DNA of 64,000 nt from Candidatus Galloscillospira stercoripullorum. Lineage in GTDB: Bacteria; Bacillota; Clostridia; Oscillospirales; Oscillospiraceae. Of the stretch, positions 3,664 to 61,219 are shown piece after piece; the first letter of the stretch is position 1, and each line of letters opens with the position of its first letter. Under the pieces are notes generated by a model, which worked only from the letters and a program-made list of their open reading frames with translations, did not search any database and had not been told where the DNA came from. The stretch lies in contig DVLB01000027.1 in NCBI GenBank assembly GCA_018715695.1, forward strand, positions 6,728 through 70,727, read 5' to 3'. A program made the position numbers and the translations under genes.

Positions 3664-4227
3664 ATGATTTCTGCCAGTGATTTCCGCAACGGCATGACCT
3701 TTGAGATGGACGGCCAGGTGATGCAGGTCGTCGAGTTCCAGCACGTCAAGCCCGGCAAGGGCGCCGCCTTCGTGCGCACCAAGATGAAGAACGTCATCAC
3801 CGGCGGCGTGACCGAGACCTCTTTCAACCCCACCGCCAAGTTCGAGGAGGCCTTCGTGGAGCGCAAGGACATGGAGTACAGCTACAACGACGGCGAGCTC
3901 TATTACTTCATGGACCCCGAGACCTACGATCTGGTGCCCATCGACGGCCATGTGCTGGGCGACAACTTCCGCTTCGTCAAGGAGAACATGCCCTGCAAGA
4001 TCAACTCCTATAAGGGCAAGATCTTCGCTGTGGAGCCCCCCACCTTCGTGGAGCTGGAGGTCACCGAGACCGATCCTGGCTTCAAGGGCGACACCGCCAC
4101 CAACGTCACCAAGCCCGCCACCGTGGAGACCGGCGCTGAGATCAAGGTTCCTCTGTTCATCAACCCCGGCGACAAGATCAAGATCGACACCCGCACCGGC
4201 GAGTACCTGGAGCGCTGCAAGGCTTAA
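3664..4227 (+). CDS. efp: Elongation factor P
   Basis: [18 protein letters not shown]...[16 protein letters not shown] is the canonical EF-P N-terminus. GGAGG at 3650-3654 fits the ATG at 3664 better than the ORF-track ATG at 3655. Confidence 0.95.
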
Positions 4228-5393: not shown

Positions 5394-6566
5394 TTATTCA
5401 TAACGCAGCGCGTCGATGGGGTTTAAGCGGGCTGCCTTGTCGGCGGGCAGGTAGCCGAAGAGCACACCCACCGCCAGAGACACCCCGGCGGAGACCAGGA
5501 TGGCAGTGAGGGAGGCCTTGGCGGTGATGCCCACGATGCTTCCCGCCACTGTGGCCAGGATCACCCCCAGCACGATGCCGATGACGCCTCCCAGGATGGA
5601 GGTGGTGCCCGCCTCAATGATGAACTGCCGGCGGATGTCCCTCCCCTTGGCCCCCAGTGACTTGCGGATGCCGATCTCCCGGGTGCGCTCGGTGACCGAG
5701 ACCAGCATGATGTTCATGATGCCGATGCCGCCCACCAGCAGGCTGATGGCGGCGATGGCCACCAGGACGGTCATCACCGTGCCCTGGATGTTGCCCATCA
5801 TGGTCATCATCTCGCTCATGGAGATGACCAGGTAGTGCTCATCGTCGCCGTAAAACCGCTCCAGCGTGCTCTCGATGAGGGCCTTGGCGGCTGCGTTTTG
5901 CTCCTCCCCGGCGGCGGAGAAGAGGTACTGGCTGATGCTGGCGCTGCCGTTTAAGCGGGTGGCGTTGGTGTAGGGGATATAGACGGCGTTGTCGCCCCCA
6001 TAGGAGGTGTTGTCGGCCTGCTCGGTGAGGATGCCCACCACGGTGTACTCGTTGCCGTTGAGGCGCAGCGTCTCTCCCAGGCCGTCGCCGCCGAAGGCCT
6101 CCTCATCCACATAGGAGCCGATGACGCACACGTTCTGCATCCGCTCCACGTCGATATACTGGATGAAGCGCCCTGTCCGCAGCTCCAGGCTTTTGACGGC
6201 CAGGTACTCCTCCCCCACGCCGGTGACGGAGGTGCTCAGGGTCTCTGCCCCCGTCTTGACCGCCGCGGCGCAGGAGACGCTGGGGCTCATGGCGGCGATG
6301 AGGGAGGGGTTTTCCTCCTTGAGGGCGTACATCTCCTCCTGGGAGATGCTGCTTGCCGCGCCCCGGTCCATGATCTGGACCTGGAGGAGGTTGGTGCCCA
6401 TCTTCTCAAACTCGGAGTTGATCATCTCATTCATGCCGTCCCCCAGGGAGATGATGACAATGACCGCCGCCACGCCGATGATGATGCCCAGCATGGTGAG
6501 CAGGGAGCGCATCTTGCTCACCGCCAGGCTCTTGAGGGCCAGGCGGAAGGACTGTGCCGCGCTCAT
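5394..6566 (-). CDS. ABC transporter permease, MacB/FtsX type
   Basis: N-terminal TM segment, a large extracytoplasmic domain and a C-terminal FtsX-like 3-TM bundle. It overlaps the upstream ATPase gene by 4 nt. Confidence 0.85.
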   Translation of the reverse strand: MSAAQSFRLALKSLAVSKMRSLLTMLGIIIGVAAVIVIISLGDGMNEMINSEFEKMGTNLLQVQIMDRGAASSISQEEMYALKEENPSLIAAMSPSVSCAAAVKTGAETLSTSVTGVGEEYLAVKSLELRTGRFIQYIDVERMQNVCVIGSYVDEEAFGGDGLGETLRLNGNEYTVVGILTEQADNTSYGGDNAVYIPYTNATRLNGSASISQYLFSAAGEEQNAAAKALIESTLERFYGDDEHYLVISMSEMMTMMGNIQGTVMTVLVAIAAISLLVGGIGIMNIMLVSVTERTREIGIRKSLGAKGRDIRRQFIIEAGTTSILGGVIGIVLGVILATVAGSIVGITAKASLTAILVSAGVSLAVGVLFGYLPADKAARLNPIDALRYE

Positions 6567-9834: not shown

Positions 9835-10356
9835 ATGCGCAAATTTTCCGCCCGAGACCTGACCCTCGCCGCCGTGGTGGCGGCCATCTACTTCGTGCTG
9901 TGCTACTTCGGCAACATCTTCAGCCTCACCTTCGGCCCGGTGCAGGTGCGGCTGGGAGAGGCCCTCACCGTGCTGCCCTTCCTCTTTCCCGCCACGACGC
10001 CCGGCGTGGTACTGGGCTGCCTGCTGACCAACATCCTCTCCCCCTACGGCCCCATCGACATGGTGGTGGGCACCCTGGCCACCGCCATCGCCGCCGTGTG
10101 GACCATGAAGATGCCCCGGTGGTATCTGGCCGCCCTGCCCCCCATCGTCATGAACGCCCTATTGCTGCCCCCCATGTGGGCCTGGGCGGAGGCGGGGGCG
10201 GTGAACGGCGCTTTCTGGGCGTCCTACCTCTTCAACCTGTGGACCTTTGTGGTGGGCGAGGCCGTGGCCTGCTATGTGCTGGGCACCGTGCTGCTCAAGG
10301 CCCTGCCCCGGGTCCGGTATTTTCAGCCCATGATCCCCGCCGCCCGGCTCTCCTGA
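9835..10356 (+). CDS. queT: Queuosine-precursor transporter QueT
   Basis: 173-aa protein of about 5 TM segments. The N-terminus MRKFSARDLTLAAVVAAIYFVL and the PYGPIDM motif are typical of the QueT family. Confidence 0.8.
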   Translation: MRKFSARDLTLAAVVAAIYFVLCYFGNIFSLTFGPVQVRLGEALTVLPFLFPATTPGVVLGCLLTNILSPYGPIDMVVGTLATAIAAVWTMKMPRWYLAALPPIVMNALLLPPMWAWAEAGAVNGAFWASYLFNLWTFVVGEAVACYVLGTVLLKALPRVRYFQPMIPAARLS

Positions 10357-10405
10357 GCCGCCGGGGCGGCCTGGGTATCCAGAGTAAACGTTGGAGGTTA
10401 CTGCT

Positions 10406-11275
10406 ATGAAGGTACGCAAGGCCGTCATCCCCGCTGCCGGGCTGGGTACCCGGATGCTCCCCGCCACCAAGACCGTCCCCAAGGAGATGCTCCCCCTGGT
10501 GGACAAGCCGGTGATCCAGTACATCATCGAGGAGGCTGTGAACGCAGGCATTGAGGACATCCTCATCATCACCAACCGTTCCAAGTCCGCCATGGACGAC
10601 TACTTCGACTACTACCCCGAGCTGGAGACCCGGCTCAACCAGGCCGGCAAGGACAAGGAGCTCTCTGAGGTCCGCCGGGCCGCAGACCTGGCCAACATCT
10701 TCTACGTCCGCCAGAAGGAGACCAAGGGCCTGGGCCACGCCATCTCCCGGGCCCGGCGCTTCGTGGGGGACGAGCCCTTCGCCGTGCTGCTGGGGGACGA
10801 CATCATGCGCTCGGACAAGCCGGTCATCGGCCAGCTCATCGAGGCGGCGGAGAAATATGACGCCTCCGCCGTGGGGGTCCAGACCGTGGCCACCGAGGCC
10901 ATCAGCAAGTACTCCTCGGTGAAGGTCTCCCCCCTGGAGGAGCGGGTGTTCTCGGTGTCCGACATGAACGAGAAGCCCACACCCGCCGAGATGTTCTCCA
11001 ACTACGCCATCCTGGGGCGCTATGTCCTCACCCCCGACATCTTCGACATTCTGGACCGCCAGACCCCCGGCTACGGCGGTGAGATCCAGCTCACCGACGC
11101 CCTGCGCACCCTGTGTCTCCAGAAGCCCATGGTGGCGGTGGACTTTGAGGGCCGCCGGTACGACACCGGCAACCTCAGGGGCTTCCTGGAGGCCACCATC
11201 GACTTCTCCCTGGAGCACCCCGAGACCGGGGCGTGGCTGCGGGAATTTTTGAAGAACAAGTCCCACACACTGTAA
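10406..11275 (+). CDS. galU: UTP--glucose-1-phosphate uridylyltransferase
   Basis: MKVRKAVIPAAGLGTRMLPATKTVPKEMLP is the GalU signature. GGAGG lies 8 nt before the ATG at 10406; the ORF-track start at 10391 is TTG. Confidence 0.92.
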   Translation: MKVRKAVIPAAGLGTRMLPATKTVPKEMLPLVDKPVIQYIIEEAVNAGIEDILIITNRSKSAMDDYFDYYPELETRLNQAGKDKELSEVRRAADLANIFYVRQKETKGLGHAISRARRFVGDEPFAVLLGDDIMRSDKPVIGQLIEAAEKYDASAVGVQTVATEAISKYSSVKVSPLEERVFSVSDMNEKPTPAEMFSNYAILGRYVLTPDIFDILDRQTPGYGGEIQLTDALRTLCLQKPMVAVDFEGRRYDTGNLRGFLEATIDFSLEHPETGAWLREFLKNKSHTL

Positions 11276-11334
11276 GCACACAAAAAAGAGCCGGCGGCCC
11301 AAAGGCCGCCGGCTCCCTTTTTGTGGTGTCCGGA

Positions 11335-12606
11335 TCAGTCGTCGTAGTCGGTCTCCCAGTCCAGGATGACGCCGGTGACGGCGTTGATGTCGCACTCATA
11401 CTCGGTGCGGCCGTTGCGCAGCTCCAGCTCGTAGACATAGCGCCCGTCGTCCCGGTCCAGCTCGCACTTGACCACGGTGGTGCCGCTGGGCACCTTGGCA
11501 AGCGCGAGGCGCTTAGCCTCGTCGGCGGTGATGAGGTCGTCGCTGGTGACGGTGCCGGTCTGGCCGCCGATGACATAGTCCTCGATGTCCCGGTCATAGC
11601 TCAGGATGGCGCCGGTGGTGGCGTCGATGTCGTAGTCATACTCGGTGTTGCCCGCGTAGAACTCCACCTCGTACTTGAGGTACCCGTCATCCCGCTCCAG
11701 CTGGTTCTTGAGGACCACGGCGCTGGAGGCGGACACGCCCGCGTGCTTCAGGGCGATCTCCTGGGCCCGGGCGGCGGTGATGGAGGCCTGGGTGGCGGTG
11801 CCGGTCTGGCCGGCCTGATAGCCCTCCACGTCCCGGTCATAGCTCAGGATGGTGCCGCTGGTGGCGTCGATGTCGTAGTCGTACTCGGTGTTGCCCACAT
11901 AGAATTCCACCTCATACTTGAGGCGTCCGTCGTCCCGCTCCAGCTGGTTCTTGAGGATCACGGCGCTGGAGGCGGACACGCCCGCGTGCTTGAGCGCGAT
12001 CTCCTGGGCCTGGGCCGCGGTGATGGAGGCCTGGGTGGCAGTGCCGGAGTTCCACAGGTCGTGGATGGTGTAATTCTCCAGGTCGTGGTCCACGCTGAGG
12101 ATGGCGCCGGTAGTGGCGTCGATGTCGTAGTCATACTCGGTGTTGCCGGAGTAGAACTCCACCTCGTAGACCATGCGCCCGTCGTCGAAGTCCAGGCGGG
12201 CCTTGAGGAAGACGGCCTCGGCGGCGGTGACGCCGGCGTCGGCAAGGGCGATCTCCTTGGCCTTGTCAGCGGTGATATAGGTGGAGGCGGCGGGGTCGGC
12301 GGCCAGGGCCACCTCGCTGGTGGTGAGCTGGGCGGTGTTCTGGTCGGCCACATAGGTCACGTTCAGGCCGGCGGCCTCGCACACGGCCCGGATGGGACCA
12401 TAGATGGTGCCGTTGTAGTTGAAGAGGGCCACTTCGTTGCCCTGCTCATCCTTGGGGGTGAAGCGGGCGCCGTTGATGGTGACGCGGACGTTGTCGCTCA
12501 CGGAGATAGTGCGGCTGGCGGCCAGGGCGGACACGCCAAGACCGATGGCCAGGGCGGAAACCAGGACGCCGGAAACGAGACCTCTGACAAATCCTCTGTT
12601 CTTCAT
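11335..12606 (-). CDS. Secreted protein with an N-terminal copper-amine-oxidase-like stalk domain and four PepSY domains
   Basis: Signal peptide followed by four repeats of the unit ITA..A..IAL..AGV....V.....L..DDG...YEVEF..GNTEYDYDIDA.TG.IL. Confidence 0.8.
   Translation of the reverse strand: MKNRGFVRGLVSGVLVSALAIGLGVSALAASRTISVSDNVRVTINGARFTPKDEQGNEVALFNYNGTIYGPIRAVCEAAGLNVTYVADQNTAQLTTSEVALAADPAASTYITADKAKEIALADAGVTAAEAVFLKARLDFDDGRMVYEVEFYSGNTEYDYDIDATTGAILSVDHDLENYTIHDLWNSGTATQASITAAQAQEIALKHAGVSASSAVILKNQLERDDGRLKYEVEFYVGNTEYDYDIDATSGTILSYDRDVEGYQAGQTGTATQASITAARAQEIALKHAGVSASSAVVLKNQLERDDGYLKYEVEFYAGNTEYDYDIDATTGAILSYDRDIEDYVIGGQTGTVTSDDLITADEAKRLALAKVPSGTTVVKCELDRDDGRYVYELELRNGRTEYECDINAVTGVILDWETDYDD
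11350..12290. repeat. Intragenic tandem duplication (about 240-bp PepSY-coding units)
   Basis: The two central units (about 11590-11830 and 11830-12070) are near-identical at DNA level. The outer units are more diverged. Confidence 0.8.
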
Positions 12607-12745
12607 AGCTTGATTCTCCTTTTCTTCCCGCCGGGGGCGGGGTGTTGTTGGTTTTGTGTCCTTCTGCCCTAATAACGCCCCCGCCCCCGGTTTTATCGCA
12701 GGGGGAAGGGAAAATTTTTTATTTTTCTTTTTTGTGCCTTTCGTC

Positions 12746-12773
12746 TTGACATTTCCCTATTTTCCTATATAAT
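12746..12773 (+). promoter_or_regulatory. Sigma-A-type promoter upstream of rpsF
   Basis: TTGACA (12746-12751), a 16-nt spacer, then TATAAT (12768-12773), about 90 nt upstream of rpsF. Confidence 0.6.
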
Positions 12774-12865
12774 AATGTAGCTTGTTTGCGTGCCATCGCA
12801 GGCAATGCGATCCTTGCTCCCGCCAAAGAGCGGGGGCCATATGTCCATAAGGAGGTGCAAAGAAA

Positions 12866-13162
12866 ATGGCGAAACTCAACGCGAACTACGAAGTGGTGAT
12901 CATCTTCAAGCCCGACCTGGGCGAGGAGGCCACCGCCGCCGCTGTGGAGAAGTTCAAGGCTCTGGTGGCGGCCAACGGCACTCTGGGTGAGGTGGATGAG
13001 TGGGGCAAGCGCCGTCTGGCCTATCCCATCAACGACCTCAACGAGGGCTACTACGTCCTGATGACCTTCAGCTCCGCTCCCGCTTTCCCCGCCGAGCTGG
13101 ACCGCGTCCTCAAGATCACCGACAGCGTGATGCGCTCCATGATCGTCTGCAAGGACGAGTAA
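12866..13162 (+). CDS. rpsF: 30S ribosomal protein S6
   Basis: MAKLNANYEVVIIFKPDLGEE...WGKRRLAYPI, in the canonical rpsF-ssb-rpsR order. Confidence 0.95.
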   Translation: MAKLNANYEVVIIFKPDLGEEATAAAVEKFKALVAANGTLGEVDEWGKRRLAYPINDLNEGYYVLMTFSSAPAFPAELDRVLKITDSVMRSMIVCKDE

Positions 13163-13175
13163 GGAGGGGCCTGTC

Positions 13176-13631
13176 ATGCTCAACCGAATCATCCTCATGG
13201 GTCGCCTGACCCGCGACCCCGAGCTGCGGCACACCCAGACGGGTACCGCCGTGGCCTCCTTCTCCCTGGCCGTGGACCGGGACTTCAAGGACAAGCAGAC
13301 CGGCGAGCGCTCCACCGACTTTATCGACGTGGTGGCCTGGCGCCAGACCGGCGAGTTTGTCTCCCGCTACTTCACCAAGGGCCGCATGGCCGTGGTGGAG
13401 GGTCGGCTTCAGTCCCGCAAGTACACCGACCGGGACGGCAACAGCCGCACCGCCTTTGAGGTGGTGGCCGACAATGTGTATTTCGGCGACTCCAAGCGGG
13501 ATGGCGACGGCGGCTCCTATGTGGGCGCCGCTCCCGCTTACGGCGCCCCCTCCGGCAGCTATGCCCCCGCCGCTCCCTCCGGCAACGCCTTCGGCGACCT
13601 GGCCGACGACGACGGGGACCTGCCCTTCTGA
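13176..13631 (+). CDS. ssb: Single-stranded DNA-binding protein
   Basis: MLNRIILMGRLTRDPELR, an OB fold, a Gly/Pro-rich tail and the acidic DDDGDLPF tip. Confidence 0.95.
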   Translation: MLNRIILMGRLTRDPELRHTQTGTAVASFSLAVDRDFKDKQTGERSTDFIDVVAWRQTGEFVSRYFTKGRMAVVEGRLQSRKYTDRDGNSRTAFEVVADNVYFGDSKRDGDGGSYVGAAPAYGAPSGSYAPAAPSGNAFGDLADDDGDLPF

Positions 13632-13709
13632 CGGCGCCGGTCTTTACAACAACAAACGGTTTTCCGTGTATCATGGGGCTCTGCGCCCCAGGAAAGTGAG
13701 GTTACTACC

Positions 13710-13949
13710 ATGGCTATGGATAGAGAGCGCCCCCGCGGCCGCAAGCGCCGCAAGGTCTGCACCTTCTGTGTGGACAAGATGGAGCACATCGACTATAAGG
13801 ACTCCGCCAAGCTGCGCCGGTTCCTGTCCGAGCGGTCCAAGATCCTGCCCCGCCGGACCACCGGTACCTGCGCCATGCATCAGCGCCAGCTGACCGAGGC
13901 CATCAAGCGGGCCCGTCAGATCGCCCTGCTGCCCTACGTCACCGACTAA
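13710..13949 (+). CDS. rpsR: 30S ribosomal protein S18
   Basis: [10 protein letters not shown]...IDYKD...[27 protein letters not shown]. Confidence 0.95.
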
Positions 13950-51785: not shown

Positions 51786-52014
51786 GGAACATGCTCCTTC
51801 CTGTTCTTCCGTCCTACTTCTAGGGTGGACGGGTATGGGCGGGACGGCTCTGCACGGCAGCTTTTCCTTCCCGGCCTGCTCTGTCCTTTCAGTATACATC
51901 CGATTCATCCGGCAGGACAACCCCATTTCCTCACCACCCGGCAAAGGAGGGATATACAAAAGCGGGGCCGCTGCGCTGGGCTCGCGCGGGGGCCCCAGGA
52001 GCTGGGCGAGGTAA

Positions 52015-52052
52015 AAGGGGCCGCTGCCTTTTGCCCGTGTCCCATAAGGAAA
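52015..52052. other. attL: host hairpin arm (52015-52028) joined to the left terminal repeat of the element
   Basis: AAGGGGCCGCTGCC is the exact reverse complement of 61206-61219. The following TTTTGCCCGTGTCCCATAAGGAAA is an imperfect inverted repeat of the right end. Confidence 0.75.
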
Positions 52053-52091
52053 CCCAAGGACAGGCAGACGGGCGAGTGGTAAATTGAACAG

Positions 52092-52129
52092 AACCGGGGA
52101 CCGGCAAGAAGCTGGTCCCCGGTTTTGTT
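52092..52129. terminator. Hairpin with flanking T tracts near the left end of the element
   Basis: AACCGGGGACC-N11-GGTCCCCGGTT followed by TTGTT on the plus strand. Confidence 0.55.
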
Positions 52130-52410
52130 ATGCTCTGGTCCCTGTGTCTATTGTGGTGTGGTAGCAGACAGACCGAGCAGTGCTGTCCCTCTCGGCCCTG
52201 CCTATCTCACGCCCCGCAGGGCGTCAGAGCGACAGCAATCCCCACGGGGACGAGGCCACAAGTTACCACCACCAACCGGCGGGGGATTGCGAAGGAGCGT
52301 ACCCACCTTATTCCCCGCCTTGCTTACGGCTCCGTCACTTGCCCGGCCTCCGCCCGTGGCGGGCCACCGGCTCCCAGCTTACCGGACAAGCCTCTCTCTG
52401 AACAACAAAA
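52130..52410. other. G+C-rich, stem-dense non-coding block inside the element (candidate structured RNA or single-strand origin)
   Basis: No plausible CDS is present. All three forward frames are open across 52180-52401 but their translations are not protein-like. Stems: 52209-14/52219-24, 52235-43/52282-90 (9 bp), 52294-301/52325-33 and 52350-54/52358-62. Hairpins bracket the block on both sides. Confidence 0.5.
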
Positions 52411-52414
52411 AGCT

Positions 52415-52449
52415 CGGAACACTTGTACGCTCAAGTGTCCGGGCTTTTT
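52415..52449. terminator. Bidirectional terminator downstream of the XRE gene
   Basis: CGGAACACTTG-TACGCT-CAAGTGTCCG with AAAAAGC on the left and GGCTTTTT on the right. Confidence 0.7.
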
Positions 52450-52759
52450 ATGTCTTTTCATTCATGGCTTTCATAATTTCTAATACTGCCATTTTTTGCC
52501 GAGACGTTAGATTTGCCCATTGACGGAATACTGCATCCAGTTCCGGGGTCAGCTCCACCATTTCCCCCTCTGCAAAGAACTGTGAAAGTGTTATTCCAAA
52601 CCCTTTGCAAATTGCTTCTAAAGTGGAGACCGAAGGAATGGTATTGCGCTTATAGATATTTGCTATTGTGGCATGGGACAAGTTGCTGTTTTTTGCCAGA
52701 CGATAGGTTGTCCATCCTTGACTTTCCAACAGCTGGTGTAGCCTTTCCAGAACATCCAT
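52448..52759 (-). CDS. XRE-family helix-turn-helix transcriptional regulator (element repressor candidate)
   Basis: WTTYRLAKNSNLSHATIANIYKRNTIPSVSTLEAICKGFGITLSQFF is a classic XRE HTH. It is divergent from the cargo operon. Confidence 0.88.
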   Translation of the reverse strand: MDVLERLHQLLESQGWTTYRLAKNSNLSHATIANIYKRNTIPSVSTLEAICKGFGITLSQFFAEGEMVELTPELDAVFRQWANLTSRQKMAVLEIMKAMNEKT

Positions 52760-52905
52760 ACTTTCAACACCATCCTTTTGTAGCTATTTTATCGTTAAGC
52801 TTGATGGTATTATATGAAAGTATTGTAACTATATTATTGTTATGTTAGAATATAATTCGAGCAGCACAGCGAGAGTGCGAATGAAAGCTTGAAAGGACTG
52901 ATATT
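52760..52905. promoter_or_regulatory. A+T-rich divergent promoter/operator region
   Basis: Plus strand: TTGTAA, a 17-nt spacer, then TAGAAT at about 52823-52851. ATTGTWA half-sites are repeated (ATTGTAAC, ATTGTTAT). Confidence 0.5.
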
Positions 52906-53505
52906 ATGAGTAACCAAAGCGGCGGCTGGGATACCGCCATTGAGACCCAGAACTACACCCCCAGCGGAGGGGCGGCCCCGCAAAAGGGCGCAAGTATCTT
53001 GGTTGACCAGAGCGAGAGCATTGTGTCCACCATCGGCAGCAACTATTTGCAAAATTTCCTTTCCGGCGGCACGGTGTCGAAGGGCGTAGGCGTCCTGACC
53101 CAGAGGCGATTTTACTACAAGGGCAGGAATTTCAGCGGTTCGGGTAAAGATATGAAAGTAACCACTGAGGAAGGGGTCGTATCTATTGAGGATATTACCT
53201 TCAGCAATTTTTCTTACACAAGAAACATTGGTGCCTTGGTTGTAGGCTTACTGCTGGCTGTTGTAGGTGCTTTTTGTACTCTTTTTTTAGGCGGCTACGG
53301 CAGCATCGGCGGACTTGGACTGTTAGGAGTTGCTGCTTTCCTGTTGGTCAATTTTTTTGTCAGTCGAAAATCTCTTTTTATCGTTTCCTTCCCCGGCGGC
53401 AGTTTTGGTTTTGACATTCGTTATTACCCCATTTCCGACATTCGGGACTTCCAGCGGCAGCTTCACCTATTAAAAGACCACCGCAAGGAGGACGGGAACC
53501 TATGA
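52906..53505 (+). CDS. Membrane protein, paralog 1 (PH-like beta domain interrupted by a TM hairpin)
   Basis: GVLTQRRFYYKGR...EDITF, then two TM helices, then LFIVSFPGGSFGFDIRYYPISDIRDFQRQLHLL. A purine-rich stretch (AAAGGA) lies 8 nt upstream of the ATG. Confidence 0.75.
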   Translation: MSNQSGGWDTAIETQNYTPSGGAAPQKGASILVDQSESIVSTIGSNYLQNFLSGGTVSKGVGVLTQRRFYYKGRNFSGSGKDMKVTTEEGVVSIEDITFSNFSYTRNIGALVVGLLLAVVGAFCTLFLGGYGSIGGLGLLGVAAFLLVNFFVSRKSLFIVSFPGGSFGFDIRYYPISDIRDFQRQLHLLKDHRKEDGNL

Positions 53506-54266
53506 GGGAACAGTACCCCTTTTTCCGGGAGGAGGACGAGCGCACCCGGGCGGTCATCGGCGCGGACGCTGCGGAAGCGGATCTGGGCGGAGAATATCAA
53601 AAACCCTACGCTATTCTTACCCAGAAGCGGCTCTACTGTAAGAACGAAGCAGGAAATTTTATTACACAGTCTGCTGACCTGCGGGGAGTGGGCAAAAGTT
53701 TTCCACCTGAGCTAACACAATGGTTTTGGGCAGAAGTAGTTTGTATGGTATTGCTCGTTTGTATGGTCATCTTCTATCATTTTGCTCCGTGGGGGCATAA
53801 CAATTTGAATGATTATTATAGTGCAGTCGGCTCTCTCGCTCAAATGCCTGCATCTGCTTATTTTGACCTGCTTGTGTCTGTTCTTTTGTGCCTCGAATGT
53901 GTTATCGCCTATATATTTATTTTTCAGAAAAGTTTTACAGCAGCTCATCGGCTGGTGTCGGTAGCTATAATAACAGCTCTGGCGTATAGCATTTTTTTAT
54001 GCAGTAAAAGACTTCTTGACCATTCCCTTACTGGTTGGATAGGGGTTAGTTTTGATGATGTTTTTTTACCGCTTATGTCCCTCGTAGCGATTATATCTTT
54101 TGTGTTGTCTGTTATAAATAGTTGGCATAGCAAAAGAAATGTTACCTTTCAAATTACCCACAACGCCGGCGCCTTTTCCTTTAACCCCAGACTGTATTCC
54201 TCTGCCGAGCTGAAACACTTTGCAGCCCAGGTTAAGACCCTAAAAGCAGGTGACGCAAATGGGTAA
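53502..54266 (+). CDS. Membrane protein, paralog 2 (same split architecture, larger TM block)
   Basis: ATGA overlap with paralog 1. YAILTQKRLYCKNEAG, then about 5 TM helices, then VTFQITHNAGAFSFNPRLYSSAELKHFAAQVKTL. Confidence 0.75.
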   Translation: MREQYPFFREEDERTRAVIGADAAEADLGGEYQKPYAILTQKRLYCKNEAGNFITQSADLRGVGKSFPPELTQWFWAEVVCMVLLVCMVIFYHFAPWGHNNLNDYYSAVGSLAQMPASAYFDLLVSVLLCLECVIAYIFIFQKSFTAAHRLVSVAIITALAYSIFLCSKRLLDHSLTGWIGVSFDDVFLPLMSLVAIISFVLSVINSWHSKRNVTFQITHNAGAFSFNPRLYSSAELKHFAAQVKTLKAGDANG

Positions 54267-54798
54267 TAACCCCGGTTTTCTGCTCGGCGGTGCCTCTTGC
54301 TCCGCTGTCCTTACCGCCGAAACCGTCACCCTCAGCGGGAACTATTACCGCTATGACATTCACAAACGGCGCAAGGTGTCCGGGACTGTCACGGTGGACT
54401 TGCTCAATGTGCTTCGGGTGGGGCTTACCAAAACCTATTCCCGCCTAATGCTGGCCGTCCCAATGTGTTTCGGTTTCGCCGCTTTAGGCATCAAGGCCAT
54501 TCCCTCTGTCGAGGTAAAAAAGACCCTTTTGGAAATTCCAGATGTTTGGAGCTTCTCCCCTGGCGTTACATTCTGGAGCCTGCCCCACCAGGATTTCCTG
54601 TGGAAGCTGTGCGCCGTGCTGTGCCTGCTCACCATCCCCCTGTACTGGTTGAGCTACCGCAACGATTTGGAGGTCAACACCACCCAGGGCCGCTATCTGC
54701 TGCCCCAGAAAGGAATGGACGCGGCACAGATCGCCAGCTTCCAGCGAGAGTTTACGCAAGCAAAAATAGCTCGACAGAAGCAGAGCAAGCGTATATAA
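54250..54798 (+). CDS. Membrane protein, paralog 3 (same split architecture)
   Basis: 17-nt overlap with paralog 2. AVLTAETVTLSGNYYRY, then TM helices, then LEVNTTQGRYLLPQKGMDAAQIASFQREFTQ. Confidence 0.7.
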   Translation: MTQMGNNPGFLLGGASCSAVLTAETVTLSGNYYRYDIHKRRKVSGTVTVDLLNVLRVGLTKTYSRLMLAVPMCFGFAALGIKAIPSVEVKKTLLEIPDVWSFSPGVTFWSLPHQDFLWKLCAVLCLLTIPLYWLSYRNDLEVNTTQGRYLLPQKGMDAAQIASFQREFTQAKIARQKQSKRI

Positions 54799-54807
54799 TT
54801 CAAAAAG

Positions 54808-54843
54808 GCGGACGGTCAAAGGGCCGTCCGCCACTTGTTTTTG
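54808..54843 (+). terminator. Terminator after the three-gene membrane cassette
   Basis: GGCGGACGG-N8-CCGTCCGCC followed by ACTTGTTTTT. Confidence 0.7.
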
Positions 54844-54855
54844 AGGAGAGGTTAT

Positions 54856-55902
54856 ATGAAAAAAGGCTCCAAAAAGATGCGTCCAGAAATTAAGCAGCCG
54901 ATTTATTATGAAATAGACTGGGGTCGAGCTGGTGTACACTATATCCCGTTGAATAACGGCACCTTTGGCCTAAGTGACATAACCGACGGAATAAAGCATC
55001 TGTTAGAGGACCACAGCTATAAAATATCTGATTTGGTAAAGGCATTTGTTTCCTGGAAAGAAAAGAACGGTTTATTGGTGCAGGACGTACCTAGTGAGGA
55101 TACAAGTCTAAGGCGCTATCTTAACAATAAAATCGTTATGCCAATGGAGGTGATGATTGATGTGTTTTGCGTTTTAGATAACTTGGGTAAGCAACTCCCG
55201 GAAGAAGAATCTGTTAAATATTTTGAAACGCTTTGCAAATTGCATAAAATGGCGGCTCAATACCAGTGGGAAACGAATTATTTTAACGAAAAACTTGAGA
55301 ATCTTCTTGAACAGCTAAATGAGTTAGATGCTGATGATATTATCCGTTTTTTGCGGTCTTTTGAATTACTGTCACTGGGGGAAGAAACTTGGTGTTTCTG
55401 GCTTTGTTATGCTACATTGCCTAGAGAAATGAGGGAAGAAACTGAACAGGTCTTATGCCGGTGTACGACACCGCATACATTCCATCGGTTGTTCTCCCGA
55501 TATCATTTCTATGCAGAGGAAGCCCATGTACTGGACGAAAAAATACTGAGAGCGAAAAGGGCTGCCCAGGAAAATCAAGAGGCGCTGAAAAAGCGCCTGG
55601 TCAGCATGGCTCGGGAAACATTTAACAGAGTTCCTAAAACCGATAGCGCCCTAAAACGAATATGTGAGATTATCAATTTGGCACTTCATTTAGACAGTGG
55701 CGATTGGATGGTGCTGCTAATGTATGAGTACACGGAAGATTGCAAATCCGCCATAGAGTTTGTATTGTCAGCTATGGAGACCCCAACCAATTACAAAAGT
55801 AAATGTCCGGAAGAAGTGGTGCGCTCCTTCAAAGAACGTCTTGTCGAACAGGTAGACCGGCGAGAGCAAGCAGAGTTAGAAATGATGTTTTTGGATGATT
55901 AA
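54856..55902 (+). CDS. Cytoplasmic all-helical protein with a degenerate XRE-like HTH near the N-terminus (hypothetical regulator)
   Basis: GAGGAGAGG lies 5 nt before the ATG at 54856. SLRRYLNNKIVMPMEVMIDVFCVL resembles the second half of an XRE HTH. It occupies the most A+T-rich stretch of the window. Confidence 0.7.
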   Translation: MKKGSKKMRPEIKQPIYYEIDWGRAGVHYIPLNNGTFGLSDITDGIKHLLEDHSYKISDLVKAFVSWKEKNGLLVQDVPSEDTSLRRYLNNKIVMPMEVMIDVFCVLDNLGKQLPEEESVKYFETLCKLHKMAAQYQWETNYFNEKLENLLEQLNELDADDIIRFLRSFELLSLGEETWCFWLCYATLPREMREETEQVLCRCTTPHTFHRLFSRYHFYAEEAHVLDEKILRAKRAAQENQEALKKRLVSMARETFNRVPKTDSALKRICEIINLALHLDSGDWMVLLMYEYTEDCKSAIEFVLSAMETPTNYKSKCPEEVVRSFKERLVEQVDRREQAELEMMFLDD

Positions 55903-55925
55903 GCGTAAGTAAATACCCATAAAAA

Positions 55926-55961
55926 CGGCTGGTGTTCAAAAGATGACACCAGCCGCTTTTA
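55926..55961 (+). terminator. Terminator after the helical-protein gene
   Basis: CGGCTGGTGT-N10-ACACCAGCCG followed by CTTTT. Confidence 0.65.
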
Positions 55962-56119
55962 TCAGCAATAATGCGGACAGTACAAATGATTGTTGCTTTT
56001 GACGATGTTTTTTACTTATGGCAGAATATCATCATAGGGACGCCTATTTGAAATATAGCCGCCGCCTTTGGGGTCGCGACCTGGGGGACGGTGGACACAA
56101 TTAAGAAGAAGGTAATACC

Positions 56120-56497
56120 ATGGCAAAATTCAATATTTCTTTGACCTGTGAACAGGCAACCGGTACCGCTACCCCCTTTCTTGTCGGGGTGTCGGAGGAC
56201 TGGGAATGGATAGATGGCCCGGACGGTAAGCGCCATCCCGGCTCTACGATTGGGACCCGTTACACCGTCCTCATGCTCCAGAGCGAGTGTGCCCCGCTGG
56301 TCGTGAAGACCCCGGAGACCACCCCGGCCGTGAGCGCCGAGGAAGTGGCTGCGGCCTGTTTGTCCGGAAATTTTATCCGGGTCCGATTCGAGGGTTTCAC
56401 GGCCAGCCCCTACCAGGGCAGGAACGGCCTGGGCATCAGCGCCAACGCTGAGAAGTGCATGGTCGTGACCCCTGCGGCTAACACTTCCAAGACCTAA
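56120..56497 (+). CDS. Small soluble protein (hypothetical), first gene of the transfer/replication block
   Basis: 125-aa ORF with a moderate RBS (GAAGAAGG). It looks beta-rich and no family was recognised. Confidence 0.6.
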   Translation: MAKFNISLTCEQATGTATPFLVGVSEDWEWIDGPDGKRHPGSTIGTRYTVLMLQSECAPLVVKTPETTPAVSAEEVAAACLSGNFIRVRFEGFTASPYQGRNGLGISANAEKCMVVTPAANTSKT

Positions 56498-56541
56498 CCA
56501 ACTCATAACCAGCGGCCCCGGCAGGGTCGGGGCCGCCCTCA

Positions 56542-57336
56542 TTGTTAATAAAGGAGATGAATACTATTAAAACTTTAATTGCTTTCTTTGCTGCGCTTGC
56601 ATCTCCGCTGATCAGTCAGTGGACCAAGTGTGGCCAAGCCATTGAGGACCGGGACCCCCTGGGGGCTGTGTTTCATTTCCTCCTGGTGGTCCTTTATATC
56701 GGTGGGCTGAGCGCCGCTGCCTGCGGGCTTGTGGCTCTGGTCTGCGAGTTCTGGTTTTATCTGATTATCCCCATCCTTATCGTCTGGCTTATCCTGTATT
56801 ATGCCGGGAAGAAGCCACAGACCCCGCCTCCCCCGCCTCCACCTCCCCCGCCTCCGGGGATTGAGGAAGTGCGTGCCCGGGCGGAGCGGGCTTATCCGCT
56901 CATGCAGCAGGCAGTTTATCTCCTGTTTACTGACCTGTGCCGCTACCTGCCCGGCCTTGTGTCCCCCTTTTCCCTGTCGGCGGTGACAGCCCCGGTGAAT
57001 TTTGACATTACCGCCAGCCTCGTCACAAGGTTTCACTTTGTACTCTCCAAAGGCCAGTGCAGCGCACCCGTCAGTGATGTAAAGGATATCCTGGACAACA
57101 TTATCTTCCAGCGTCTCCGTGTCCAGGACCTGCCCATCTCTATTCCGGCTATTTACACTGCGGCGGACGGCAGCACCTGGCCCGGGTTGGTTGTGGACGG
57201 TGTCTTTGACTTGGGCAATCAGTACCGGGTGGATTTGGTCATCACCAACGAGGCCGAGGTGGCCGCCCTCCGGGCCAAGGGCCTATCCTGGTCCGAGGAC
57301 GACGAGGCCGCCGACCCCCAGGACCCGGACCTTTAA
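56542..57336 (+). CDS. Membrane protein with a 12-residue polyproline tract (hypothetical)
   Basis: Three N-terminal TM helices, PPPPPPPPPPPP, a soluble C-terminal domain and an acidic tail. The start is ambiguous (TTG 56542 or ATG 56557). Confidence 0.65.
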   Translation: MLIKEMNTIKTLIAFFAALASPLISQWTKCGQAIEDRDPLGAVFHFLLVVLYIGGLSAAACGLVALVCEFWFYLIIPILIVWLILYYAGKKPQTPPPPPPPPPPPGIEEVRARAERAYPLMQQAVYLLFTDLCRYLPGLVSPFSLSAVTAPVNFDITASLVTRFHFVLSKGQCSAPVSDVKDILDNIIFQRLRVQDLPISIPAIYTAADGSTWPGLVVDGVFDLGNQYRVDLVITNEAEVAALRAKGLSWSEDDEAADPQDPDL

Positions 57337-57341
57337 TCGTC

Positions 57342-58058
57342 ATGCTGATTGGATATGAGTATAACGCCTACCGGCTGGGTGTGGCGCTGGGGGTCCACTG
57401 GACCCCTGGCCCCACGGCCCCGCCCCATTGGCTGGTCGTTGGTCCAAGCGGAACGGGGAAAACGGTGTTTTCTGGCCAGCTTGCAGCCCGCATGGTGCTG
57501 CGGGAAAATGCCCGTCTGTGGATAGTCAACTACAAGGACGATGATTTTTTCCAATTTCTCCAAGAGGTACAGGGGCGGTATTACCGATTCCGGGACGCGG
57601 CCAACGGCATACGGGATTTTTATACCGTCCTGGAGAACAGGCTGGGTGGAGACCCGGACCGCTCCCTATGCCTGCTGTGGGTGGACGAGCTGGCAGCTAT
57701 GGTAACGGGCCTGGACAAGAAGGAGGGGGAACTTGCGAAGTCCGCTGTGGCCTCCATCCTCCAAACCGGCCGCTCCCTCAACTGTCAGCTGCTGGTCAGC
57801 GTCCAGCGGGCGGACAGCGCTTACTTCAACAACGGAGCGAGAGAGAATTTTGGGAATGTGGTGTTCCTGGGTCCCAATATCACAAAGGAGGCAGCGGGGA
57901 TGTTTGGGATAGACCGGGCAGCTCTGCCCTCTGTGACCGGGCGGGCAGGATACTACATCGTCAACGGCAACAGCGAAGCAATCCGCCCCATCCAGTGCCC
58001 CATCATCAAGGACACCGCCAAGCTGAAAGAGGCCCTTTCGTTGGGGTTGACGAGGTGA
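57342..58058 (+). CDS. Short FtsK/SpoIIIE-family DNA-translocase-like ATPase
   Basis: Walker A GPSGTGKT, Walker B LLWVDELA, and TGRSLNCQLLVSVQRAD, which matches the FtsK QRP-type motif. Confidence 0.8.
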   Translation: MLIGYEYNAYRLGVALGVHWTPGPTAPPHWLVVGPSGTGKTVFSGQLAARMVLRENARLWIVNYKDDDFFQFLQEVQGRYYRFRDAANGIRDFYTVLENRLGGDPDRSLCLLWVDELAAMVTGLDKKEGELAKSAVASILQTGRSLNCQLLVSVQRADSAYFNNGARENFGNVVFLGPNITKEAAGMFGIDRAALPSVTGRAGYYIVNGNSEAIRPIQCPIIKDTAKLKEALSLGLTR

Positions 58059-58120
58059 CAAGCTGGGAGCGGCGGCGGAGCCGTAGGCGGAAGCCGCCGC
58101 TCCTGTTAACTTGATTCTTT

Positions 58121-59059
58121 ATGAACATTAGCAGAATGGCAAAACATGAGCGCCCACAGCCCAGGGACGATGTAACGGTAAAAGAGTGCGCAAACCTTGT
58201 TGAAGTGCGGTACAGCGTGAATACTCCCCCGGAAACGGTCATTCAAAAACTGACAGCAGACCTATACCTGGACAAACGGACGGGAGAAGTCAAGGCTTTC
58301 CGGCACACGGAAAACCGGGCAGAAGACAAGTCCAGCGTGGCGCAAAGTCTGTGCAGGCTGCGGGACCTCATCAACACCAATGTGACAGACCCGGACTGGG
58401 TTCTATGGGTAACGCTGACCTACCGGGAAAATATGCGTGACCCCTCCCGGCTGTATGAGGACTTCCGCCGCTACCGGCAGCGACTAAACTACTACCTGGA
58501 CAAACGGGGCCAGCCGAAATGTGAATACATAGCGGCAGCAGAGCCACAGGGCCGTGGGGCGTGGCACCTCCATTTGCTGCTCCTGTTTCCCGACAAGGCC
58601 CCATTCATTCCCAACACTGAAATGGCCCGTCTGTGGGGGCAGGGATTTACCAAGACCAAGAGCCTAAAGGGCGTGGATAACCCGGGCCTCTATCTGACCG
58701 CCTATCTGGGCGACATGGAACTGACCGAGGCGGTGACGGCTGGACAGTTCCAAGCGGCCCACATCCAGGAGAAGGCAGCGGGGAAAGCGGTGGTAAAAGG
58801 GGCGAGGCTACGGCTGTACCCCAGCGGATTCAACTTGTATCGCTGTTCCAGAGGGGTGAAGCGGCCACAAGTCATACAGATGACCGAGGGAGAGGCCCGC
58901 CAAGTCATCAGGGACGCCCCTCTTGTCTATGAAAAAACCATAGCGGTCTTGAATAACGAGGGTGAGACAGTGAACATCATCAACTACCGCCAGTACAACC
59001 GAGCCAGGGTCGAGGAAGAAACCGCCCCCGCCGTGGCATCAGGAAAGACAGAGGCATGA
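58121..59059 (+). CDS. HUH-type rolling-circle replication initiator / relaxase
   Basis: Motif order WVTLTY (motif 1), GAWHLHLLLLF (HUH) and GLYLTAYLGD (Tyr motif). Confidence 0.75.
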   Translation: MNISRMAKHERPQPRDDVTVKECANLVEVRYSVNTPPETVIQKLTADLYLDKRTGEVKAFRHTENRAEDKSSVAQSLCRLRDLINTNVTDPDWVLWVTLTYRENMRDPSRLYEDFRRYRQRLNYYLDKRGQPKCEYIAAAEPQGRGAWHLHLLLLFPDKAPFIPNTEMARLWGQGFTKTKSLKGVDNPGLYLTAYLGDMELTEAVTAGQFQAAHIQEKAAGKAVVKGARLRLYPSGFNLYRCSRGVKRPQVIQMTEGEARQVIRDAPLVYEKTIAVLNNEGETVNIINYRQYNRARVEEETAPAVASGKTEA

Positions 59060-59203
59060 GCTGTCCGGGAGACACCCAAAGAATAAAATCCGGCGGCAAG
59101 CGCCGCCCACCACTAACCCCATACAGATAGCCGTCGCAACGGCAACCGCTAAAAAGGAAATATCCTCCATATCAAGTAAAGGGTAAAACAAGGAGGCAGA
59201 ACT

Positions 59204-59398
59204 ATGAGTGACCAACAAGAACAAGACCGGGTATTGGTCGTGACCCCCATTATTTTTAAGGAGATAAGCGGGACGATATACGGCGTCTATGGCTATTTCA
59301 GCCCGGAGGCAAAGGAAACAGCGAGGGAGAAAATCAGACGGCTTTTGACGAAGGAGCCAGAGAGCAAAACACGGAAGAAAGTTGCAAAAATCATATAA
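59204..59398 (+). CDS. Small basic-tailed protein (hypothetical; possible recombination directionality factor)
   Basis: A strong RBS (AAGGAGG) lies 7 nt before the ATG. The 64-aa ORF sits immediately upstream of the recombinase. Confidence 0.6.
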   Translation: MSDQQEQDRVLVVTPIIFKEISGTIYGVYGYFSPEAKETAREKIRRLLTKEPESKTRKKVAKII

Positions 59399-59479
59399 AA
59401 TGCTGTACTTTTAGGCAGAAATAAGGTATAATATAGACATACCACAAGCCCGTTCTGCCACACAAAGGAGGTTAATTTC

Positions 59480-61144
59480 ATGTGGCAGTACGATACAATC
59501 AAAGGCAAATTTATCCCCGGCGAACTTCCCGCCGACGGTGCAAAAATCACTGCTTGCTATGACCGGCTGAGCCAGGAGGACGAGCAGGAGGGGGACAGCG
59601 GGTCCGTCGTTAATCAGCGGGACTTCCTGCGGAAATACTGCGTAGAGCATCATTTCCTCAATGTGCGGCACTTCTCAGACGATGGCTATACTGGGACGAA
59701 TTTTGACCGGCCCGGTTTCCAGGAGATGATGGACCTGGTGGAGCAGGGCCGTGTCTCCGCCGTCATTGTCAAGGACCATTCCCGGCTGGGTCGTAACCGC
59801 CTTCTGGTGGGCGCTCTCATGGAGCGGTTCACGGAGGATTACGGGGTGCGATATATCGCTGTGACGGACAACATCGACAGCGCAAAGGGCCTGGACGATA
59901 TGACGGCAGTGCGGGAGTTGTTTAATGAGTTTTACCCCCGTGACACCTCCAAGAAAATACGGGCGGTGTTCACCAGCAAGGGCAACAGCGGACAGAGGTT
60001 GTGTACTCAGGTCCCCTATGGCTACAAGGGCAATAAATACGGCTGGGAGGTAGACGAGGAAGCGGCCCAGGTGGTGCAAGAGATATTCAGCCTGTGTATG
60101 GCAGGGTTGGGTCCCATGCAGATCGCCAAGCGGCTGAAAACGGCGGGGGTGCTGACCCCCACGGCGTACAAGCTGGAAAAGGGCCTGTCCGTTACCCATA
60201 AGCCGACAGCGGACCCTTGCGGCTGGGACCATCGGGCGGTAGTGAAAATCCTGGAGCGCATGGAATACCTAGGCTGTACGGTGAACTTCAAGACCCGGAA
60301 GAAGTCATACAAGTCTAAAAAGACGCTGTACCTCCCCAAAGAGGAATGGAAGGTATTTCCCGACACTCACCCAGCTATTATAGACCAGGAAACATGGAAA
60401 CGGGTCCAGGAGCTGCGGAAGCACAAGCGCCGTCCCACTAAAGCGGGCAAGCGGGGTTTGTTCTCCGGGCTGGCCTATTGCGCCGACTGCATGAGCAAGC
60501 TGTATTTCTCCACCCACAAGGGGTCCACAGAGGACCAGGACCACTATGTATGCGCCAACTACAAGAGCAACACGGGCAGCTGCACCATCCACTATATCCG
60601 GGAAAAGGTACTGTCTGCCCTGGTGCTGGCCCACCTGCAAGCCACCCTTGCCTATGTCCAGGCGGACGAGGACGCTTTTACCCGTCTGGTGATGGAAAAG
60701 GACGCCCAGGAGCAGCGGCGGGATTTAGCCCGAAAGAAAGCAGAGCTGACCAAGGCGGAGAAGCGGGGCATGGAACTGGACGGGCTTTTCCAGCGGGTCT
60801 ATGAGGACCACGCCCTGGGTAAGCTGACAGAGGAGCGGTACAACCGCCTCTCCAGATCTTACGAGGCCGAACAGAGAGAGCTGGAGGCCAGAGTGGAAGA
60901 ACTGCGGCGGGACCTGGAAAAAGGCCAGGAGGAGGCCGTAAATGTGGCCCAATTCGTGGCGCTGGTGAAGAAATACACGGAGGTCCGGGAACTGACGCCC
61001 ACTATCGTCAATGAGTTTATCAAGATGGTGATTGTTCACGCTCCATCGAAGGTCAACGGCAGACGATTCCAGGCGGTGCAGGTCGTTTATAATCTGGTGG
61101 GTGAGGTCACGATACCCGACACCCAGAACAGAGAAACGGCGTAA
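59480..61144 (+). CDS. Large serine recombinase (TnpX/TndX-like)
   Basis: The N-terminal resolvase domain has the catalytic-Ser context ACYDRLSQED and VIVKDHSRLGRN. It also has a recombinase domain, a Cys-rich zinc ribbon (CADC...CANYKSNTGSC) and a coiled-coil C-terminus. Confidence 0.92.
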   Translation: MWQYDTIKGKFIPGELPADGAKITACYDRLSQEDEQEGDSGSVVNQRDFLRKYCVEHHFLNVRHFSDDGYTGTNFDRPGFQEMMDLVEQGRVSAVIVKDHSRLGRNRLLVGALMERFTEDYGVRYIAVTDNIDSAKGLDDMTAVRELFNEFYPRDTSKKIRAVFTSKGNSGQRLCTQVPYGYKGNKYGWEVDEEAAQVVQEIFSLCMAGLGPMQIAKRLKTAGVLTPTAYKLEKGLSVTHKPTADPCGWDHRAVVKILERMEYLGCTVNFKTRKKSYKSKKTLYLPKEEWKVFPDTHPAIIDQETWKRVQELRKHKRRPTKAGKRGLFSGLAYCADCMSKLYFSTHKGSTEDQDHYVCANYKSNTGSCTIHYIREKVLSALVLAHLQATLAYVQADEDAFTRLVMEKDAQEQRRDLARKKAELTKAEKRGMELDGLFQRVYEDHALGKLTEERYNRLSRSYEAEQRELEARVEELRRDLEKGQEEAVNVAQFVALVKKYTEVRELTPTIVNEFIKMVIVHAPSKVNGRRFQAVQVVYNLVGEVTIPDTQNRETA

Positions 61145-61181
61145 CCCCGTAAGGTTACGCCGTTCTCTCCAAATATTGATA

Positions 61182-61219
61182 CTTCTTTATGGGACATGAC
61201 CCTTTGGCAGCGGCCCCTT
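61182..61219. other. attR: right terminal repeat of the element joined to a host hairpin arm (61206-61219)
   Basis: The reverse complement of 61182-61205, AAAGGGTCATGTCCCATAAAGAAG, pairs with the left end. GGCAGCGGCCCCTT is the exact complement of 52015-52028. Confidence 0.75.

Follow-up and report, generated by a model that had tools for sequence, protein, structure and literature searches.

A conserved, partly hairpin-forming non-coding module of small rolling-circle elements of gut Clostridia, a candidate single-strand origin

The window, i.e., the whole 64,000-nt stretch of DNA analysed here, contained an integrative element with a G+C-rich non-coding block at its left end, as an earlier note made from the letters had proposed. 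The flanking sequences 52015–52028 and 61206–61219 were exact reverse complements of each other, and TGTCCCATAAGG (52038–52049) was found as an inverted repeat of CTTTATGGGACA (61185–61196), one at each end of the element; the element therefore corresponds to 52029–61205, and the block lies inside these borders. The end repeats look as the two attP halves of a serine recombinase would be expected to look. The eno terminator hairpin has the element inserted in its loop. Left of the junction in five other host contexts (L008, L010, L011, L012 and L014) an A-rich stretch is followed by a G+C-rich one, and these left flanks could be a candidate first arm of an intrinsic terminator; the recombinase of the element may target terminator loops. 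The gene order of the element, from left to right, was HTH, p199, p254, p182, p355, p125, p264, ATPase, Rep and recombinase, and no virion genes were recognisable among them. The features were as follows.

52029–52055, plus strand: left end of the element, attL (element-derived half of attP); homology to elements elsewhere begins at 52030
52092–52135, plus strand: P0, a G+C-rich hairpin followed by TTTTGTT, terminator-like
52205–52411, plus strand: conserved core of the block, from nhmmer/Infernal matches in 65 loci and alignments
52209–52214/52219–52224, plus strand: P1 hairpin, ACGCCC-CGCA-GGGCGT, supported by covariation
52235–52243/52282–52290, plus strand: P2 hairpin, base stem GCAATCCCC/GGGGATTGC, with compensatory changes at four pairs
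52314–52319/52358–52363, plus strand: P3, a possible long-range pairing CCCGCC/GGCGGG, formable in every sequence
52412–52449, strand unassigned: right hairpin (52412–52444), preceded by an A run and followed by a T run, reported by the consensus scan as a minus-strand intrinsic terminator behind the HTH gene
52448–52759, minus strand: HTH gene, adjoining the block on the right
p199, p254, p182 and p355: four proteins, each of no known family
56120–56497, plus strand: p125, without Pfam or PHROG match
ATPase: FtsK/SpoIIIE-like P-loop protein of 238 aa
58066–58117, plus strand: predicted double-strand origin, hairpin GGAGCGGCGGC/GCCGCCGCTCC followed by TGTTAACTTGATTC, directly upstream of the rep start
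58121 (start): Rep, HUH type (PF23343), 312 aa
Large serine recombinase: 554 aa, last gene on the right

The structure predicted for p125 was an OB fold (mean pLDDT 78), whose best structural matches were SSB, PriB and OrfM of ICESt3 (Z 6–7.4, rmsd 3–4 Å over 80–94 residues); this model is consistent, with middling support, with a single-stranded stage of the element. The product of p264 (56542–57336, plus strand) contains a run of eleven prolines, gave no family match and is 77–93% conserved in related elements. A small ORF (59205–59399, plus strand) lies between rep and the recombinase gene, and its counterpart in L012–L015 is a weak TnpW hit; together with the DUF4368-type recombinase it recalls the recombination module of Tn4451.

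The HUH Rep named in the earlier note was confirmed as one of the two-tyrosine type, with motifs HLHLLL and YLTAY. A hairpin and AACTTGAT make up the predicted nick site at 58066–58115, the nick motif itself being at 58109–58115 on the plus strand, and ACTTGAT is kept upstream of rep in 10 diverged elements whose Reps are 54–95% identical. This motif is that of the phiX174/pC194 class (CTTG/ATA, the slash marking the nick), and by analogy the nick is expected after G58113 of the plus strand. Since the nick motif with its hairpin is found at 58066–58115 on the plus strand, directly in front of rep, the double-strand origin is separate from the block, and it is the plus strand of the block that becomes single-stranded. 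The block is also unchanged in an element whose Rep and origin differ.

The three forward frames are indeed open together across the block (ORFs 52125–52523, 52130–52483 and 52180–52401), and a Pfam search at E up to 1 gave no match for these three ORFs nor for one ORF of a minus-strand frame. Close relatives of the block were distinguished by 1- and 2-nt indels and distant ones by a deletion of about 38 nt. The G+C content of the block was 0.63–0.67 versus 0.37–0.46 in the neighbouring region 52400–52900, which agrees with the G+C-rich island described before as far as the adjacent A+T-rich cargo is concerned; the same value is, however, the host average and that of the right half of the element, and the block is therefore an island only relative to its A+T-rich neighbours. 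The two flanking hairpins with T tracts were present at 52092–52129 and 52412–52449. Folding of 52130–52449 as RNA gave z-scores of −4.4 (plus strand) and −2.8 (minus strand), and folding of 52087–52449 as DNA gave −5.9 and −5.6. These values are due largely to the two flanking hairpins, and the impression of a stem-dense region therefore rests largely on them: the term holds for the whole stretch, but not for the core alone, which folded no better than dinucleotide shuffles (mean z −0.7 on the plus and −1.1 on the minus strand; n = 17 sequence types). Neither strand was favoured by the energy, the structure-conservation index or the z-score.

Copies of the block were gathered via homologues of the adjacent p199, by two scans with exact motifs (the first gave 87 genome hits, of which 13 were genuine and the others due to chance) and by a covariance model run on genomes. 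The core (~52205–52411, ~210 nt) was found by nhmmer and Infernal in 65 loci from Oscillospiraceae-type gut bacteria, representing 41 distinct sequences, i.e., 37 plus another 4 contributed by the covariance-model search. Two of 150 genomes of the host family were matched by this model. Among the named carriers were Flavonifractor plautii ATCC 29863 (copy at L068 4497–4743) and two more strains of Flavonifractor, along with MAGs of Oscillibacter, Faecousia and Oscillospiraceae, and the samples came from human, chicken, goat and mouse gut. BLAST of the block showed it to be single-copy in the window's own genome (a MAG, 74% complete) and detected none in PLSDB plasmids, INPHARED phages or the genomes of 60 relatives. 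The neighbouring HTH protein was letter-identical on many metagenomic contigs whose flanking genes are unrelated, and on those contigs the homology to the window starts at 52013–52030 or at 52201–52209 and continues through the block. The block thus moves with the element, having been found in at least six host contexts with homology starting at the element border.

In a widespread variant (L002–L009) a 176-aa ORF and an HD-domain gene were observed about 300–2500 nt past the block, before a small acid-soluble spore protein gene, and in L016 and L027 a gene of the latter kind is separated from the block by about 60 nt. This neighbourhood suggests a preferred insertion site behind the spore protein gene.

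Identity of the block was about 96–97%, versus 61–87% for the adjacent p199 protein, and the block was the sole non-coding segment that could be aligned among distant relatives of the element. Among carriers of the block the identity of the ATPase drops to 27–40% and the Rep switches family; every protein of the element was less conserved than the block. In agreement with the comparison that the earlier note had suggested as a check, the block is present in homologous elements and two of its stems, P1 and P2, covary. The block is genuine, being a conserved non-coding module that in part forms hairpins and is carried by a family of small rolling-circle integrative elements of gut Clostridia.

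The core is made up, in order, of P1, AGAGCGAC, P2, GGAGCG, ACCTTATTCCCCGCCTTGCT (52305–52324), a variable stretch, CCGTGGCGGGCC (52354–52365), a variable hairpin and CTGAACAACAAAAA (52398–52411). Four stems had been proposed for it by eye. Two of them, ACGCCC/GGGCGT and GCAATCCCC/GGGGATTGC, are upheld by compensatory changes and correspond to P1 and P2, whereas GGAGCGTA/TACGGCTCC and the local CCGCC/GGCGG hairpin, together with the GGCC/GGCC extension of the latter, were not conserved in relatives. Three of the six pairs of P1 showed compensatory changes (C-G to T-A, C-G to G-C and C-G to T-A), the variants being ACGCCC/GGGCGT, ATGCCC/GGGCAT and ATGGCC/GGCCAT, and also ATGCCT/AGGCAT in genome G094. 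The base stem of P2 was found as GCAATCCCC/GGGGATTGC, GCAATTCCC/GGGAATTGC or GCAATTT/AAATTGC, and as GGAATCCC/GGGATTCC in G118. The distal 38 nt of P2 are variable and are absent from the minimal forms (L019, L145, L139, L090 and L159–L162); in nine sequences this distal part is replaced by a loop of 3–4 nt. With an arm spacing of either 3–4 or about 38 nt, P2 fits a hairpin and does not fit a dimer-binding palindrome. When P1 and P2 were evaluated together in 34 sequences, 97% of the cells were paired and six pairs changed on both sides; none of 500 shuffles was as good, and slid controls were 30–50% paired.

Both sides of P3 are invariant, and there is therefore no covariation evidence for this pairing; a mutual-information scan revealed no helix beyond P1 and P2. 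Three further stems were tried and rejected: GGAGCGG/CCTGCTCC, whose AGCG/TGCT core is invariant with no consistent covariation; CCACGG/CCGTGG, the 5′ partner of which is missing from the minimal forms; and a helix of GCTGTCCCTCT with AGAGCGACAGC, found only in the window and L016 types. Invariant or near-invariant and seemingly unpaired were AGAGCGAC after P1, GGAGCG after P2, CCCCGCC within ACCTTATTCCCCGCCTTGCT, CCGTGGCGGGCC and CTGAACAAC. Wobble pairs, read on the plus strand, were G-T in five lineages versus A-C in two, a weak preference for that strand.

The block had the orientation of rep in every element showing a Rep or an ATPase. Genome G094 contains three copies of the block, one of which (element 1) accompanies a CRESS-type Viral_Rep (PF02407) protein, a Pfam family other than that of the Rep at 58121. 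The origin of this element contains, on the rep-sense strand, a stem-loop GTAGCGGAAAGG-TTAGTATTAC-CCTTTCCGCTAC whose loop includes TAGTATTAC, the nonanucleotide of circovirus-like Rep origins, and the block is again oriented as rep. The integrases found with the block were diverse: a DUF4368-type serine recombinase, a 556-aa serine recombinase, a tyrosine integrase and a divergently placed serine recombinase. Judged from these arrangements, the block behaves as a Rep-independent cassette that would serve different Rep/origin pairs and lies in each case on the strand displaced by Rep. The occurrence of the same cassette with different Reps and integrases fits a conserved host factor, and not an element protein, as its recogniser, and the fact that no protein of the element is conserved like the block also points to a host partner.

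In the L148 type no Rep was found within 7.7 kb, a point against the cassette being tied to Rep-driven elements; in copies of this type the recombinase gene diverges from the block and a D5 primase is encoded close by. These copies looked like a Rep-less counter-example, but G094, which is arranged alike, has an ATPase and a Viral_Rep protein. A second mobile unit (serine recombinase, HTH and D5-type primase-helicase) occupies L148 7501–11977, 2.4 kb to the right of the block copy, and may have been inserted into a block-bearing element. On L163 (G094:C12:7000-26999) two block-bearing elements are placed head to head, at about 6000–6345 and 10168–13887, one of them being that with the Viral_Rep protein and the TTAGTATTAC loop; the two blocks are separated by genes for an HTH protein and a 509-aa serine recombinase and by an Abi_alpha-like gene.

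The earlier note left two readings of the block, a structured RNA or a single-strand origin (sso) or transfer-related DNA structure. The second is favoured in its general functional sense, and we give about an even chance to the block being a candidate single-strand (lagging-strand) origin of a new type, outside ssoA and ssoU. The serine recombinase would excise the element and the Rep would nick the plus strand at AACTTG/AT just upstream of rep; the plus strand would be displaced as ssDNA, with the block becoming single-stranded about 3.3 kb after the start. P1 and P2, possibly together with P3 and the flanking hairpins, would next fold and expose the invariant unpaired motifs, and RNA polymerase of the host, or its primase together with the primosome, would start the complementary strand at the block. 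Excision, nicking and displacement can be read or follow from the sequence; hairpin folding and priming are the steps that we infer. The family comprises ~9-kb integrative elements with rolling-circle replication, and transfer probably takes the same route.

Known sso are extensively folded. The hairpins P1 and P2 are supported, but a point against the single-strand origin is that the core overall is no more stable than shuffles and contains long invariant stretches that are seemingly unpaired. Host enzymes read single-strand origins, which are cassettes of fixed orientation and flexible position that occur with more than one Rep family (PMC5703833, PMC4595007). Location on the displaced strand and fixed orientation to rep, as well as the formation of hairpins, are among the properties expected of them (PMC4595007); the block shows all three, the first two being necessary and not sufficient for an sso, and its fixed orientation could be explained by mere synteny.

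The specific link to ssoA made in the earlier note was not supported. The AGCGTA loop, taken there as a resemblance to the CS-6 motif, is not conserved because the sequence of the right hairpin differs from type to type, and neither TAGCGT nor TAGCGA was found in a conserved hairpin loop. The words GAGCGA and GAGCGT (5/6 to CS-6) are conserved and placed after P1 and P2, outside the loops, and are regarded as a lead only. The RSB, TTTATGCCGAGAAAA, is the conserved sequence of RNA-polymerase-dependent sso (PMC6395029) and occurs in ssoA, ssoU, ssoT and ssoW (PMC5703833). At up to three mismatches it was absent from 52029–52449, and the two matches elsewhere in the window were at chance level. 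As a positive control, an exact match was obtained in pT181 at 3771–3785; the match in pUB110 had three mismatches, i.e., chance level, and is therefore not a clean control. The partial likeness of CTTATTCCCCG to RSB (7/11) was judged to be chance, and inspection of the block by eye revealed no hairpin-borne −35/−10 pair. When covariance model R1 was run with filters off on pT181 (ssoA) and pUB110 (ssoU), the best score was 6 bits (E 0.18). As far as these sequence comparisons go, the block belongs neither to ssoA nor to ssoU.

The first alternative is that the block encodes an uncatalogued structured non-coding RNA with a conserved target in the host or the element, read from the plus strand from a weak promoter in the left spacer or from the excised circle only. 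The covarying hairpins and the high G+C content beside A+T-rich cargo would suit such an RNA, as would the slight preference of G-U pairs for the plus strand and, on the minus strand, a UNCG-type P1 loop (UGCG). The window type also has a weak promoter-like TTGTTA-18 nt-TATTGT at 52134–52163, which is below the scan threshold, and, at the 3′ end, a plus-strand hairpin followed by a T run. No sigma-70-type promoter was detected, however, in a scan of 52029–52449. Among 23 sequence types scanned on either strand none was consistently placed, and 14 of the 23 had no promoter-like site up to 150 nt upstream or up to 60 nt downstream. P0-related hairpins (GGGGACCG...CGGTCCCC and a T run) were located 10–95 nt upstream of P1 in the window, L068, L116, L127 and L025 types, and several types have a terminator or the element border 10–20 nt upstream of P1. 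On the right side there is no conservation of the plus-strand T run that follows the 3′ hairpin; most types retain just the minus-strand terminator reading (hairpin and UUUUGUUGUU), with a U tract corresponding to the conserved AACAACAAAA. The terminators on the left and on the right both face inwards, and the block is therefore shielded from transcription on both sides. The combination of a conserved sigma-70-type promoter and a terminator on one strand, as in an independent small-RNA gene, was not found.

In agreement with the statement that the block could not be matched by eye to tmRNA, RNase P, SRP RNA, a tRNA or a riboswitch, the whole window gave no Rfam 15 match at gathering score, and ARAGORN found neither tRNA nor tmRNA. 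At E up to 10 no Rfam family was assigned to the block, the only matches being hairpin-level ones to miRNA models and abiF (18 bits versus a gathering score of 37). With the core also folding no better than shuffles, an RNA of this kind is conceivable and on balance rather unlikely. Unlikely as well is a structured nucleic acid of a new class whose cooperation with a conserved host machine would be of an undescribed kind, either an RNA made only from the circle or a folded ssDNA that recruits a host factor through the invariant unpaired motifs and not through a promoter on a hairpin; such a class would be common to rolling-circle elements of the phiX-like and the CRESS-like kind in gut Clostridia.

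Other DNA signals, of which we are more doubtful still, are a packaging or transfer site (for the FtsK-like ATPase or a helper), a single-strand promoter and an accessory site beside attP that helps to control excision. Invariant stretches longer than the hairpins require, and words of the CCCGCC/GGCGGG type repeated in both orientations, would fit a signal of this sort; on the circular map the block is always beside the recombinase and the att region, the element encodes the FtsK/SpoIIIE-like ATPase of 238 aa, and one block-carrying contig is listed among viral contigs. The block is not an integrase site, because the same block is found with three unrelated integrase types. No element protein is as conserved (the low ATPase identity and the change of Rep family were given above), which argues for a host partner, and the compensatory changes and the variable length of P2 point to a folded single strand and not to duplex recognition. 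Finally, an origin of the block from host DNA, or from what is left of a gene or pseudogene disrupted where the element is inserted, would account for the host-like G+C content and the three open plus-strand frames but is most improbable, being contradicted by the position of the block within the element borders (52029–61205), its 92–99% identity in elements inserted at unrelated host contexts, the lack of BLAST matches in 60 relatives and of Pfam matches in any frame, and the 1-, 2- and ~38-nt indels of its relatives.

To our knowledge, second-strand priming sites are known from a handful of plasmid families of Bacilli and from one or two conjugative elements, and we know of no such site reported from the small integrative elements that abound in gut Clostridia. 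The module is sharply defined (~210 nt), widespread, present in a cultured type strain and associated with unrelated Reps, and is thus a candidate open to direct testing. As a single-strand origin, if it is one, the block would mark the host factor that limits the host range of these elements and would provide a handle to find such elements in metagenomes; if it is an RNA, it would represent a new family.

The large structured RNAs of mobile elements in Rfam resemble the block in being G+C-rich, conserved, intergenic and endowed with covarying stems; unlike them, the block has no Rfam 15 match and no promoter, and its flanking terminators point inwards. The complementary-strand origins of ssDNA phages include hairpins B/C of Ff (RNA polymerase), that of G4 (primase) and the primosome assembly site of phiX174, and the intergenic hairpin region of Ff is bracketed by a terminator-like hairpin. 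These origins share with the block a set of hairpins in the intergenic plus strand, and the Rep of the element is of the phiX174/G2P kind; the element differs from the phages in having no recognisable virion genes.

Integrative and mobilizable elements of Firmicutes combine a relaxase of RCR-initiator type (Viral_Rep, PHA00330 or Rep_2) with a TcpA/FtsK-like coupling protein (PMC5704250, PMC5357655). The present element is similar in its HUH Rep, small FtsK-like ATPase and site-specific recombinase, and a putative transfer as ssDNA would need second-strand priming too. In contrast, the elements of PMC5704250 and PMC5357655 are streptococcal, and the term sso is absent from PMC5704250.

With respect to the known sso (ssoA of pT181/pMV158, ssoU of pUB110, ssoT, ssoW, and sso1 of ICEBs1; PMC5703833, PMC4595007), the block has no RSB and no CS-6 in a loop, gave no model match in pT181 or pUB110, is far more G+C-rich, and combines long invariant unpaired stretches with a modest predicted stability. 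It resembles them in being non-coding, hairpin-forming, orientation-fixed and located on the displaced strand, in its flexible position relative to rep, in its use as a cassette across different Reps, and in its expected host specificity.
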